This document shows, piece after piece, positions 3,933-62,572 of a stretch of DNA of 64,000 nucleotides; position 1 is the stretch's first letter, and each line of letters starts with the position of its first letter. Position numbers and translations under genes: made by a program. The DNA comes from a virus (lineage: Duplodnaviria; Caudoviricetes). The notes under the pieces were generated by a model. It saw nothing but the letters and a program-made list of their open reading frames with translations. It did not search any database and had not been told where the DNA came from. The stretch lies in IMG/VR virus record IMGVR_UViG_3300021959_007005; one strand, 5' to 3'.

Positions 3933-4464
3933 ATCAGCATTTAAACAAGAAAATAAGACGGCACCCATTAACAATTATATACGTCAATCTAAGTTGAGAT
4001 TAATTGATCAAAATGGAATACAACATGGGATAATTGATAAGCATCGAGCATTACAAATGGCTGATGCAATTAATTTAGATTTAGTACTTATTAATGAAAA
4101 AGCAGATCCTCCTATTGCAAAATTGTTAGATGCGGGTAAATACTTTTACGAGCAAAAACGCAAAGAAAAAGACCTACAACGTAAGCAGCGTGAAAGCACA
4201 ACTGTAATTAAAGAAATGCAATTTAAATTAGGTATTGGAGATAATGATTTCAATACAAAATTAAGACATATTGAAAAATTTCTTAGTAAAGATTGTAAAG
4301 TTAAATGTGTTATCAAGTATCGTGGAAGAGAAAACGCTAATAAACAAATAGGATTTGAAATAATGGAACGCATTATTGAAAACACTACATCAACTGAATG
4401 GGACATTAAGCCTAGTTTAAATGGTAATAGACTAATAGGCATATTAAAAACGAGGAAAGAATGA
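3925..4464 (+). CDS. infC: Translation initiation factor IF-3
   Basis: INNYIR..LRLID, DLVLINEKADPPIAKLLDAGKYFYE, KEMQFKLGIGDNDFNTK, KYRGRE. Confidence 0.9.
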   Translation: MNRSAFKQENKTAPINNYIRQSKLRLIDQNGIQHGIIDKHRALQMADAINLDLVLINEKADPPIAKLLDAGKYFYEQKRKEKDLQRKQRESTTVIKEMQFKLGIGDNDFNTKLRHIEKFLSKDCKVKCVIKYRGRENANKQIGFEIMERIIENTTSTEWDIKPSLNGNRLIGILKTRKE

Positions 4465-4691
4465 GAGAACCTAAAAGAGAATATCAAAAACGTGGGCTTT
4501 ATGTTGAAGTTAGGAATAACGATGTAACTCGTGCTTTACGCAAGTTAAAAAAATTAGTGAATACTGAAGGGTTAGTTAAAGAACTTCGAGACAAAGAATA
4601 TTACGAAAAGCCTAGCTTAAAGAAAAAGAAAGCTAAAGCAGCCGCCAGAAAACGACACCTTAAAGAATTAGAAAAGAAAAAAGAAAAATAA
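4461..4691 (+). CDS. rpsU: 30S ribosomal protein bS21
   Basis: VEVRNNDVTRALRKLKK...KEYYEKPSLKKKK. Confidence 0.85.
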   Translation: MREPKREYQKRGLYVEVRNNDVTRALRKLKKLVNTEGLVKELRDKEYYEKPSLKKKKAKAAARKRHLKELEKKKEK

Positions 4692-4694
4692 CTC

Positions 4695-4723
4695 TTGACT
4701 TTGCAAGTGAAACGTACTATATT
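4695..4723 (+). promoter_or_regulatory. Sigma70-like promoter upstream of orphan RNA
   Basis: TTGACT-N17-TATATT. Confidence 0.6.
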
Positions 4724-4729
4724 ATATAC

Positions 4730-5062
4730 ATAGCTTGGGAGATATCCCAGAGTTAGATAGTGCAAGGAAATGTTGTTTTGTAAGGACAATAACTTGGCTA
4801 GTAGCCGTAGTGGCAGCGTATGAGCATGGAGACATGAAGATACGTATTTCGAACGTAACTGTTTGATACTAGGCGCAACTGAAGGTATGAAATACTTACT
4901 AGGTTGTTGGAGGTAGACTGCAATCCTCCCTATCACTTTATATCCTAACTGTAACAAGAAAGGATCCCACTAGATAAGAATTATAGTGTCACTACAAGAA
5001 AAACAACGTAGTAGGGGTTGCGCCATAATACGCACGTTAGGGACCACGGTTAGTCCCTAAAT
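4730..5062 (+). ncRNA. Unassigned structured ncRNA (~330 nt)
   Basis: No credible ORF; nested long-range pairs GGCGCAAC/GTTGCGCC and GCGTAT/ATACGC, several hairpins, terminal TTAGGGAC/GTCCCTAA stem. Confidence 0.55.
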
Positions 5063-5076
5063 TACTAAATAAACAT

Positions 5077-5126
5077 GTAGATGCCAATAGGGTCTACTTT
5101 TACCAATCTTGCTTTAAAAGGAGATT
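5077..5126 (+). promoter_or_regulatory. ROSE-like RNA thermometer leader
   Basis: Two hairpins; the second pairs UCUUGCUU (bulged G) with the AAGGAGA Shine-Dalgarno. Confidence 0.5.
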
Positions 5127-5129
5127 ATT

Positions 5130-5327
5130 ATGAAAGCAAATTATATCAACGGACTAGTGGACCAAATCCACACACAAACAAAAACTTTCCTCAACACAAT
5201 TGATCCAAGTGAACAGTACACAACGCCTCTACGGGCAATGGCTGACGCAAACACAGAGTTTGCTAAATCTTGGGCAACTGCAACAGAATCAATGACCACT
5301 GCTTATACAGCGGCATTGAAAGTGTAA
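5130..5327 (+). CDS. Small helical protein (phasin-like, tentative)
   Basis: 65 aa, strong AGGAG RBS, Ala/Thr-rich amphipathic helix. Confidence 0.6.
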   Translation: MKANYINGLVDQIHTQTKTFLNTIDPSEQYTTPLRAMADANTEFAKSWATATESMTTAYTAALKV

Positions 5328-5338
5328 GGGGGATGGAT

Positions 5339-5773
5339 ATGAATAGATTAACAACATTAGACATCAATAAACTTACTCCATATGCTGTTGGCTTTGATAG
5401 AGTATTTGACGATATGTTCAAATATGCAAATCATAACCAAAATAGTACAGGGGGATATCCACCTTACAACATTGTACGTGATGGTGAGAAGTTTCAAATT
5501 GAAATTGCACTAGCTGGTATTGCCAAAGAAGATTTGGATATTACAGTAGCAGAGGGTGTACTTACAGTTGAACACACACCGGAAGGCGAAGTAGAGTCTA
5601 GCGGATGGGAATGGTTACACAAAGGCATCAGCCAGCGTCATTTCAAACGCAACTTTACACTTAGCGACGACATTGTAGTAAATGGATCTAGAATGGAAAA
5701 TGGTATGCTATTCATCGAACTAGAGCGTATTATTCCAGAAGAGAAGAAACCACGCACTATTCAAATTAAATAA
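5339..5773 (+). CDS. ibpA: Small heat-shock protein Hsp20 (IbpA-like)
   Basis: GFDRVFD, YPPYNI, EIALAG, GISQRHFKRNFTL, NGMLFIELERIIPEEKKPRTIQI; start re-called. Confidence 0.95.
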   Translation: MNRLTTLDINKLTPYAVGFDRVFDDMFKYANHNQNSTGGYPPYNIVRDGEKFQIEIALAGIAKEDLDITVAEGVLTVEHTPEGEVESSGWEWLHKGISQRHFKRNFTLSDDIVVNGSRMENGMLFIELERIIPEEKKPRTIQIK

Positions 5774-7404: not shown

Positions 7405-7513
7405 ATGTGCAGATACGCACAGTTGCACAAAACGCATATCGTCTTTGCGCATACAGCACTAGTAAACCATGGTTTTTAGTGTTATATTAAAATAAATAAA
7501 AGTACAACAACAA

Positions 7514-12799: not shown

Positions 12800-12830
12800 T
12801 TGACATCGTTATATACTACTGTTATAAATA
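12800..12830 (+). promoter_or_regulatory. ssrA promoter (sigma70 consensus whose -10 also matches T4-late TATAAATA)
   Basis: TTGACA-N17-TATAAA(TA). Confidence 0.75.
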
Positions 12831-12834
12831 ATAT

Positions 12835-61605: not shown

Positions 61606-61703
61606 TAAATACGTGTGTCCAATAGTACTCATGAGAGGACTTATGCTGCACCACAGCGTAGCCCATAGAACGGGCGTAGGACTTCTTTTTAAGGAGAAAA
61701 CAA
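61606..61703 (+). promoter_or_regulatory. Late promoter plus structured leader, copy 1
   Basis: Near-identical to 62084-62182, with covarying stem. Confidence 0.8.
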
Positions 61704-62075
61704 ATGGGAAGACCACTAAACAAAAGACACTTTGGCAATCCAGGTAATGATGGGTTCCAGATCAGGGTAACAGCAGACGTAGGTGCTGGCGCAAGCGCAG
61801 GTCATATTGTAAAGCAAACAGGCAGCAAGCGTTTTCTATGTGATGTAGGCGGAAGTGAAGCAGTTTGTTCATTAGGAGCAGGCGCACCAGGCGTAGGCGA
61901 AGTGAGAATTAACGTAACAGACAGTGCAGCAGGTACTTATGATGTTACTAAAATCTCAGGTAGAACATGTACAGTTAAACCACAGACAGGTACACAATTT
62001 GCTCAAGGCGATAAAGTTCCTTGGAACAAAATTGGCGCCGTGGTTAATGAAAGTGTTGTAATCGACTTTCTATAA
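61704..62075 (+). CDS. MGRPLNKR-family late protein, paralogue 1
   Basis: Shares KQ.GSKRFL and V.KISGRTCTV...GTQFA with paralogue 2. Confidence 0.75.
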   Translation: MGRPLNKRHFGNPGNDGFQIRVTADVGAGASAGHIVKQTGSKRFLCDVGGSEAVCSLGAGAPGVGEVRINVTDSAAGTYDVTKISGRTCTVKPQTGTQFAQGDKVPWNKIGAVVNESVVIDFL

Positions 62076-62083
62076 TTGCAGCA

Positions 62084-62182
62084 TAAATACGTATGTCCAA
62101 TAGTACTCATGAGAGGACTTATGCTGTACCCACAGCGTAGCGACTAGAACTCGCATAGGACTTCTTTTTAAGGAGAAAACAA
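62084..62182 (+). promoter_or_regulatory. Late promoter plus structured leader, copy 2
   Basis: See copy 1. Confidence 0.8.
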
Positions 62183-62572
62183 ATGGGAAGACCACTAAAC
62201 AAGAGAAATTTCGGCGCACGAGCAGACGCTGGTGCCCAAATTGCACCAGCCGCATACACTACCCAACTATTTGGTAATGCTCATATAATCAAGCAAAAAG
62301 GTAGTAAGCGTTTTCTAGTAGCAACTGCGCTGTCTGGGGTCGATCAACCAGACCAAATTTGCAAACTAGTAACGGATGTACCAGCTGCTACTGGTGAAAT
62401 GGTTATCAAATGTAAAGATAGTGTGAACGGAACTTACTTTGTAAGTAAAATTTCTGGTAGAACTTGCACAGTAGTAGCAGATTCAGGAACACAGTTTGCA
62501 TCAAAAACAAAAGTACAGTGGAACCTCAGTGCCGCTGAAGCTGGCGTATCAGTTATACTAGACCTAGCATAA
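62183..62572 (+). CDS. MGRPLNKR-family late protein, paralogue 2
   Basis: See paralogue 1. Confidence 0.75.
   Translation: MGRPLNKRNFGARADAGAQIAPAAYTTQLFGNAHIIKQKGSKRFLVATALSGVDQPDQICKLVTDVPAATGEMVIKCKDSVNGTYFVSKISGRTCTVVADSGTQFASKTKVQWNLSAAEAGVSVILDLA

Follow-up and report, generated by a model that had tools for sequence, protein, structure and literature searches.

A manA-family RNA and a compact pseudoknot motif lie in tandem upstream of the hsp20 operon of a marine phage

The manA motif first became known in 2010, through T4-like cyanophages and marine metagenome sequences (Weinberg et al. 2010, PMC2864571). It was placed in possible 5′ untranslated regions (UTRs), among them those of ibpA chaperone genes (PMC2864571). 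Since then it has stood as a ligand-less riboswitch candidate. A preprint using cryo-electron microscopy (cryo-EM) reports pentamer-based assembly of manA RNAs into decamers and into a 60-mer cage (bioRxiv 10.64898/2026.07.01.735769), with contacts made by L5-L7′, L8-L9′ or L3-L8′ kissing loops and by the L6 GNRA loop (bioRxiv 10.64898/2026.07.01.735769). Here we analyzed a stretch of 64,000 nt from a large, T4-like marine phage (IMG/VR record IMGVR_UViG_3300021959_007005; the whole stretch is called the window below), in which a region of ~330 nt (4730-5062, + strand) lies between the bS21 gene and an operon of orf65, hsp20 and clpS. An earlier reading made by a model from the letters alone (the sequence-only reading) had taken this region for a single orphan, highly structured RNA with its own promoter. 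Our comparative data indicate that it is almost certainly composite rather than one fold: a manA-family domain comes first, a variable linker next, and last an independent motif of 47 nt, here called AB.

A cmscan search against Rfam, which the sequence-only reading had proposed as a check, gave no match in the region at the curated cut-offs. Permissive scans against all 4227 families of Rfam 15 then identified manA; the E-value was 1.7e-11 when the region was scanned and 1.8e-9 when the whole window was. RNase P, group I and group II introns, 6S, raiA, ROOL, GOLLD and ribozymes were not found at E≤10 in the region or at E≤0.01 in the window. The 5′ 205 nt thus belong to a known family, and the description as an orphan does not apply to them. 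The helices of the Rfam model were mapped onto window coordinates, and pairs were counted in 47 unique homologues, to which the percentages below refer.

4735..4939, + strand: manA-class RNA domain (Rfam RF01745), cmscan 48.8 bits, model positions 1-192 of 192
4735-40/4745-50, + strand: manA helix P1
4756-60/4930-34, + strand: manA closing stem, 99% paired
4773-78/4784-89, + strand: manA helix
4799-4803/4867-71, + strand: manA junction stem, 92% paired
4804-06/4812-14, + strand: manA L5 hairpin, 100% paired
4816-21/4840-45 and 4825-28/4833-36, + strand: manA L6 hairpin with the GNRA loop GAGA
4849-54/4861-66, + strand: manA L7 hairpin, 82% paired
4875-81/4901-07, + strand: manA helix
4909-13/4925-29, + strand: manA last hairpin, 99% paired

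The P3 helix was 96% paired and the L6 hairpin 99-100% paired, with two-sided changes in 10 of its 10 pairs; such changes were numerous across the helices scored, and the MAFFT alignment did not resolve P1 or the inside of the eighth helix. Three hairpins of the sequence-only reading (TGGGA/TCCCA, CATG-GAGA-CATG and GGAGG/CCTCC) turned out to be manA helices. The L5 loop UAGU (4808-4811) is complementary to the L7 loop ACUG (4858-4861), and this complementarity covaries both within the subfamily, where the pair 4809-4860 is AU in 38, GC in 5 and GU in 4 of the 47 sequences, and against the Rfam consensus (GGU with ACC), although sequence cannot separate an intramolecular from an intermolecular contact. 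Similarity and covariation together show a manA-family fold for the 5′ 205 nt. Syntenic copies, mutually alignable with that of the window, scored 59.5 (L015, above the Rfam gathering cut-off of 55.2 bits), 51, 43.8, 41.3 and 39 bits. Because its own score falls short of this cut-off by 6 bits, the window copy represents a divergent subfamily, probably carried by phages of heterotrophs.

The 3′ end of the region is occupied by the AB motif.

5014..5060, + strand: AB motif of 47 nt, an H-type pseudoknot plus an 8-bp hairpin
5014-16/5023-25, + strand: AB stem S1
5019-22/5031-34, + strand: AB stem A, with loop UAAUA
5037-44/5053-60, + strand: AB hairpin B, after CG, with loop CACGGUUA at 5045-52 (consensus CAYGGUUA)

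A pattern search of IMG/VR (TAATANGCNCG-N8-CANGGTTA) returned at least 119 stretches. Among the matches listed, 74 unique instances had both stems intact, and 58 of these 74 had neither an upstream manA nor the downstream hsp20 leader hairpins. We aligned 65 unique copies, in which the 4 bp of stem A were 100% paired and the 8 bp of stem B 93% paired, with two-sided changes in 7 of 8 pairs; these percentages are inflated because the instances were chosen for intact stems, which leaves the pair-type count unaffected. The pair between columns 3 and 14 (the base 5′ of GGG with a loop-A base) is AU in 31, GC in 14 and CG in 12 copies and adjoins an invariant G-C, indicating an H-type pseudoknot. 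The covariation score reached 0.66, compared with 0.22 in shuffles (0 of 500 as high) and 0.10-0.14 in slid controls. The invariance of UAAUA, CAYGGUUA, GGGU and CG was largely imposed by the search pattern, which fixed most such bases.

A covariance model built on the motif (R1) scored the window copy at 70 bits and found no second copy in the window. One copy per locus was present in 96 of 100 loci, and each of five long phage contigs (one of 204 kb and 100% complete; one 90% complete) had a single copy. The R1 search of HTVC008M, Melnitz, P-SSM4 and Syn33 gave no AB motif, and blastn of the motif against cultured phages gave nothing useful. In 185,579 prokaryote species genomes (596 Gb), the pattern had 62 hits, estimated to be no more than chance, of which one retains the AB stems, on a 733-nt contig of a cellular-genome assembly. 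A cmscan of 4600-5200 against Rfam 15 at E≤10 reported just manA, ROSE, snoZ182 and MIAT, with no match over 5012-5063. The motif is apparently undescribed, possibly lying unnamed within a 2023 catalogue of ~8,500 IMG/VR candidate RNAs (PMC10690425).

AB was always intergenic among the instances examined and shared the strand of its upstream neighbour in 59 of 66 cases and of its downstream neighbour in 54 of 64. Thirteen instances begin 4-6 nt past the 3′ end of a tRNA and eight precede a tRNA, and the 3′ flanks carry a T-run in 11 of 66, ATAAATA in 18 and a ribosome-binding site within 60 nt in 23. When the neighbourhoods of the 74 instances were clustered, bS21-hsp20 synteny (27 loci) was the sole recurrent partner; the motif is unlike a riboswitch because its downstream genes are inconsistent. 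The AB stretch is conserved even in L001, a locus without manA. Taken together, these patterns suggest that AB is a second autonomous small RNA module. Two kissing partners for loop B were tried, the manA L7 loop (78% paired) and the linker word UAACUGU (70% paired), and both were dropped for unconvincing covariation. The loop sequence ACGGUUA would also be complementary to UAACCGU near the 3′ end of E. coli 16S rRNA, a point in favour of a ribosome-associated role.

The two modules are joined by a linker.

4940..5013, + strand: variable A-rich linker, poorly conserved across groups
4968-72/4984-88, + strand: linker hairpin, with a loop displaying GAUAAGAA

Pairing of the linker hairpin reached 100% among the 6 closest relatives and 48% over all relatives. 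The word GAUAAGA(A) occurs at 4974-4981 of the window and in the linkers of L148, L201, L206, L223, L245, L005 and L008, often twice; it lies 3′ of the promoter or cargo and 5′ of the AB motif, and a hairpin loop displays it in the window's group. GATAAGA also recurs 5′ of AB in bS21-hsp20 loci without manA, and it may be a protein-binding site. Some relatives have an additional element of ~115 nt in the linker (L001:2490-2610, L003:2490-2600, and the same place, from the manA position to the linker, in L009 and L146). This element is closed by a 14-bp stem (TTTGAAATACACAC / GTGTGTATTTCAAA), substitutes for manA in L001, lies 3′ of manA in L003, L009 and L146, and gave no hit in Rfam at E≤0.1. 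It may represent a small mobile insert or one more cargo RNA served by the same promoter.

To compare manA across phages, we used 61 unique full-length copies retrieved via a shared core word. A TTGAC-N16-18-TATATT promoter, ending ~10 nt before the first hairpin, was present in 56 of them, and a canonical intrinsic terminator (GC hairpin and T-run) followed within ~70 nt in 36. The terminators differed by context, occurring in 31 of 33 copies before genes for small 'MGRP' (MGRPxNK) proteins versus 0 of 16 before hsp20. They start past the closing stem and have no conserved overlap with manA; terminator arms in L027 and L043 that resemble manA strands were not conserved across terminators and were treated as chance. 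The MGRPxNK genes carry their own ATAAATA motif and a freshwater-2 leader 3′ of the manA terminator. TTGACA-N17-TATAAT immediately precedes the manA of the cultured cyanophage P-SSM4 (184 bits), and a hairpin and then CATAAATA come after it; ATAAATA is found 3′ of this manA. The 100%-complete 204-kb phage genome G003 has a manA of 51.8 bits, with no promoter, between tRNA-Gly and tRNA-Pro at spacings of 9 and 4 nt, and an AB motif 4.5 kb away; three further copies (L093, L120 and L086) lie immediately 3′ of tRNAs, likewise without a promoter.

Within the bS21-hsp20 spacer itself, manA can be missing. L001 retains the promoter, linker, AB motif, ROSE hairpins and hsp20 and has no manA, and seven further bS21-hsp20 loci have other cargo where manA would be. 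In such spacers of other phages, the promoter is retained together with a linker containing GATAAGA, the AB motif, ATAAATAA and the hsp20 leader, and the stretch from promoter to linker contains nothing, other structured cargo or the ~115-nt element. Because bS21-hsp20 spacers exist without it, manA is a portable cassette, and the hsp20 leader functions without it. The presence of a promoter and terminator, or the embedding among tRNAs, suggests that manA behaves as a stand-alone gene.

Several further observations concern manA and its neighbours in other phages. The window contains, at 61625-62572, two tandem genes for 'MGRPLNKR...' proteins of 123 and 129 aa, each preceded by a freshwater-2 RNA motif (RF02980; 66 and 72 bits). 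These 'MGRP' proteins had no Pfam family, and homologues from other phages had no PHROG; in other marine phages, a promoter-manA-terminator cassette lies upstream of an 'MGRP' gene and its freshwater-2 leader. The cultured Pelagibacter phage HTVC008M gave a weak manA-like match (L318, 5037-5223; 25.9 bits, E 6.8e-6), distant from its bS21-hsp20 region. In P-SSM4, an annotated hypothetical ORF of 57 aa (PSSM4_169.1) lies entirely within the 184-bit manA (L319:585-758) and is probably a mis-annotation.

We next consider the flanks of the region, which bear on how it is expressed.

4461..4691, + strand: bS21 gene, upstream neighbour (Pfam Ribosomal_S21, 3.6e-17)
4695..4723, + strand: sigma-70-type promoter P1, with -35 TTGACT at 4695-4700, a 17-nt spacer and -10 TATATT at 4718-4723
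5066..5072, + strand: TAAATAA, resembling the T4-type late promoter TATAAATA; invariant in relatives, mostly as ATAAATAA
5077..5132, + strand: ROSE-like hairpins over the orf65 Shine-Dalgarno sequence (ROSE RF00435, 24.9 bits, below cut-off)
5130..5773, + strand: downstream genes orf65 (5130-5327) and hsp20 (5333-5773; Pfam HSP20, 3.3e-18)

The TTGACT-N17-TATATT promoter named by the sequence-only reading is present and conserved in relatives. It matches the consensus at 10 of 12 positions, is the top sigma-70-like site of the neighbourhood, predicts a transcription start at ~4730, and is unchanged across 12 related intergenic regions, where TTGAC and TATATTA are invariant. Public runs containing the locus or part of it number 22, of which 14 are recorded as RNA, all as contigs. 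In X2, a contig of depth 18.8 over IF3 and bS21 ends at 4769, and one of depth 138 starts at 4745 and extends past 6200; in X7, a contig runs from 4743 to 5677; in X6, a contig starts at 4752 right after the library adapter, with a depth of 21.5 over 4752-5097 and of 11-16 in the pieces downstream. The 5′ boundary of the RNA thus falls within ~20 nt of the predicted start in three studies (4743, 4745 and 4752), which supports the earlier idea of a non-coding RNA unit with its own promoter. The same reading had found no credible ORF, and this was upheld. The spacer 4692-5129 has no ORF conserved among relatives, in which the longest stop-free frames switch strand and frame and shrink to ≤39 aa in L005 and L006.

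At the 3′ end, a scan of the + strand of the region found no terminator, and a U-tract after hairpin B is absent in the window (the sequence 3′ of 5060 is ATTACTAAATAAAC) and in all hsp20-context relatives. No contig breaks after hairpin B in X2, X6 or X7, and those of X2 and X7 span manA through hsp20. Read-through from promoter P1 into hsp20 is therefore likely, a grade we set because contigs are no proof that one transcript spans the interval, and they establish neither strand nor ends.

Beyond AB, the hairpins at 5077-5132 are nearly invariant among relatives, and L018 scores 35.3 bits with ROSE_3, below the cut-off. The TAAATAA at 5066-5072 may give the hsp20 transcript a second start site, its promoter function being suggested by its letters and place. 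ATAAATAA is also found just 5′ of the tmRNA (12824) and of another structured leader (7492). Across the window, (A)TAAATAA at 5066-5072, 7492-7499 and 12824-12831 stands a few nt 5′ of three structured RNA starts (the ROSE-like leader, a DUF1127-operon leader and the two-piece tmRNA), a placement that fits a T4-type late or middle promoter. The motif is not enriched in the window, with 6 found versus 11.8 expected.

We put the probability at about 55% that the region, read as a whole, specifies modular stable non-coding RNAs, manA and AB, that are co-transcribed with the hsp20 operon. Host RNA polymerase with sigma-70 would initiate at ~4730 on the conserved promoter, a strongly supported step that points to early-type transcription. 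The first 205 nt fold as manA RNA with complementary L5 and L7 loops and a GNRA L6 loop; no terminator follows, and the transcript would pass through the A-rich linker into the autonomous AB pseudoknot and hairpin, then via TAAATAA and the ROSE-like hairpins into orf65-hsp20-clpS, which is consistent with the RNA contigs. Both modules would be self-contained, probably trans-acting, stable RNAs rather than sensors gating hsp20, and their co-transcription with the chaperone operon would be incidental to this locus. The likeliest role for manA is that of an RNA scaffold or particle that is produced in the early phase of infection and assembles by itself. AB could bind a protein or another RNA, or contribute to processing or stability, and hsp20 would additionally have a late-type promoter of its own (TAAATAA, 5066-5072) along with the ROSE-like hairpins.

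Several points weigh against this interpretation. The founding paper and Rfam regard manA as a likely cis-regulator, with ibpA among the listed downstream genes (PMC2864571), and OFF riboswitches share the arrangement of an aptamer with a terminator behind it. The RNA of manA is physically continuous with hsp20 mRNA in the contigs, which leaves room for a role in cis, and contigs reveal neither the ends of a transcript nor its processing or strand. The RNA libraries may contain carried-over DNA, but the 7-fold depth step argues otherwise. The window manA scores ~6 bits below the Rfam cut-off, oligomerization is known for other manA sequences, in vitro and from a preprint (bioRxiv 10.64898/2026.07.01.735769), and at 5014/5025, the covarying pair of the pseudoknot, the window copy of AB has G opposite A.

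A more specific joint reading of the two modules is tentative. Here AB would be an undescribed, phage-specific, single-copy class of RNA, freed by tRNA-type processing or made from its own promoter. It would act in trans, perhaps partnering the manA particle, perhaps as a decoy or antidote against a nuclease or RNA-binding protein of the host; manA copies would be stand-alone genes for self-assembling particles and not riboswitches.

The original hypothesis for manA, a cis-regulatory leader or riboswitch that senses a metabolite or condition and tunes orf65-hsp20-clpS, appears rather unlikely here. It draws on the founding description in potential 5′ UTRs, including that of ibpA, on the Rfam type Cis-reg, on the position of manA upstream of hsp20 on the same strand in 16 related loci, and on the RNA contigs that connect the two. 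However, no expression platform competing with manA was found, and no terminator follows manA in 16 of 16 hsp20 loci. The 190 nt between manA and the Shine-Dalgarno sequence are taken up by the variable linker, the independent AB motif and what is probably a second promoter, and the Shine-Dalgarno sequence is already covered by its own ROSE-like hairpins. The long-range stems through which manA might have acted on the 3′ part lack conservation (51-58% paired). Elsewhere, manA has its own terminator without overlap with the closing stem (36 of 61 copies) or is flanked by tRNAs, and it is missing from L001 and seven other hsp20 loci.

It is unlikely that the region specifies a discrete ~330-nt small RNA, with the transcript from promoter P1 ended or processed at the AB hairpin and hsp20 made mainly from the TAAATAA promoter; this possibility overlaps with co-transcribed modular RNAs. 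Hairpin B is a strong 8-bp stem, the T-run directly 3′ of AB in 11 of 66 other loci is terminator-like, and TAAATAA is invariant and positioned like the other late-promoter-like sites. The X6 depth of 21.5 over 4752-5097, compared with 11-16 downstream, would also fit, but contig depths are too coarse to place a 3′ end. Hairpin B has no U-tract in the window or in any hsp20-context relative, and single contigs run from ~4745 through hsp20 in X2 and X7.

The last alternative is the single nested fold proposed by the sequence-only reading. The region is indeed highly structured, as the + strand folds at -100.5 kcal/mol versus -80.3 ± 4.6 for shuffles (z -4.37; 0 of 100 as good) and the - strand gives z -2.0. 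The words on which the proposal was built are all in place: GCGTAT at 4816, ATACGC at 5028, GGCGCAAC at 4872, GTTGCGCC at 5017, TAGCCGT at 4802, ACGGTTA at 5046, and the arms of the terminal hairpin, TTAGGGAC at 5037 and GTCCCTAA at 5053. The hairpin words CACTA/TAGTG and CTAC/GTAG were likewise found, as were those now assigned to manA helices. The nested long-range stems exist as complements (8/8 and 6/6 bp) and are part of the minimum-free-energy fold, but conservation fails. In 15 related leaders (alignment A2, percentage of cells paired), GCGTAT/ATACGC was paired in 51% and GGCGCAAC/GTTGCGCC in 58%. Instead, 4816-4821 pairs locally with 4840-4845 in the manA L6 hairpin (99% paired, 6 of 6 pairs covarying), and 5019-5022 pairs with 5031-5034 in stem A (100% paired, 3-4 pair types), so that the covariation check suggested for these stems favours the local alternatives. 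The 7-bp pseudoknot 4802-4808/5046-5052 was 89% paired, nearly all via invariant bases, and overlaps two covarying manA helices, the junction stem and the L5 hairpin; it was not retained. Among the smaller hairpins, TACGT/ACGTA was 72% paired in the 8 of 15 alignable rows and competes with covarying manA helices, CACTA/TAGTG was maintained in the closest group only, and CTAC/GTAG was not conserved.

One large fold with a loop pseudoknot, ribozyme-like or ribosome-associated and tied to the adjoining translation genes for IF3 and bS21, is thus highly improbable and largely refuted by the comparative data, since manA and AB are separate in other genomes, no ribozyme or RNase P family matched, nothing else supported either role, and complements to loop B were not enriched in the window (5 found versus 7.5 expected).

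The gene row at the locus is orf142, IF3, bS21, the spacer, orf65, hsp20, clpS and a GMP-reductase-like gene (the last two assigned by Pfam ClpS and IMPDH/GMP reductase), and this order is conserved in 19 IMG/VR loci. The window also carries an alpha-type tmRNA besides IF3 and bS21, and has no tRNA near manA or AB at this locus. Between the ROSE-like hairpins and hsp20, orf65 (5130-5327) is present in part of the relatives only (the window, L001-L004, L009-L012, L014, L127 and L213); in the others, the leader is followed directly by hsp20, and orf65 has no family in Pfam or PHROG. A blastn search of the locus against cultured phages gave nothing useful. The spacers upstream of cyanophage hsp20 genes are short, too small for manA.

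The manA family and its ibpA/hsp20 context were already known, the latter because the founding paper lists ibpA (PMC2864571), and the window copy is a divergent new member. New are the manA-AB fusion architecture, the AB motif itself, and manA as a promoter-terminator or tRNA-embedded gene, contrary to the "Cis-reg" label. The proposal that manA is a stand-alone stable RNA and not a cis-regulator becomes directly testable because of the promoter in 56 of 61 copies, the terminator in most, the tRNA insertion in four phages and the free loss or replacement of manA between bS21 and hsp20; natural constructs are available with manA alone, with manA-AB fusions and without manA. AB is compact, strongly covarying and small enough for quick biochemistry and structure work, and it is essentially restricted to phage contigs, with one intact exception (the 733-nt contig of a cellular-genome assembly).

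Among known systems, the ROSE thermometers (RF00435, RF02523) resemble the hairpins at 5077-5132, which also precede a small heat-shock gene. However, these hairpins score below the cut-off and lie outside the manA-AB region, and the AB hairpins fall outside the ROSE model and are found in many loci without hsp20. AB itself is comparable to the compact H-type pseudoknot RNAs, namely preQ1-I, SAM-II/SAM-V, type III antitoxin RNAs (ToxI) and the T4 gene 32 operator, in its ~47-nt class, its 3-bp and 4-bp stems and its 5-nt A/U loop. Variation falls in its stems and leaves its loops invariant, and the likeness is purely topological. AB differs from these RNAs in having no Rfam match, in being single-copy instead of a repeat array, and in having virtually no cellular counterpart in the exact-pattern scan.

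T4 species 1 and 2 (rnaC/rnaD) are small stable RNAs in a phage tRNA cluster that are freed by tRNA processing. Both modules show a likeness to them in genomic placement, manA within tRNA arrays with few-nt spacers (G003, L093, L120 and L086) and AB 3′ of 13 tRNAs and 5′ of 8; with such spacers, tRNA processing would free manA and AB as discrete RNAs. In contrast, the manA and AB of the window lie away from tRNAs.

The closest described system remains manA (RF01745) itself. The window shares with it a full-length model match, the same multi-helix architecture with covariation, the setting in a marine T4-like phage upstream of an ibpA/hsp20 chaperone gene, and an L5-L7 complementarity that corresponds to the 'pseudoknot?' of the founding paper. 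As in the RNAs studied by cryo-EM, its L6 is a GNRA loop and its L5 is complementary to its L7; we infer the correspondence of its helices to the numbering of the preprint from L6 being the GNRA loop. Those RNAs were isolated domains of <200 nt folded in vitro, whereas the window's domain is embedded in a longer transcript and joined, with no terminator between, to a 120-nt extension ending in a second motif. The comparative data favour a stand-alone RNA gene over the 'Cis-reg' label.

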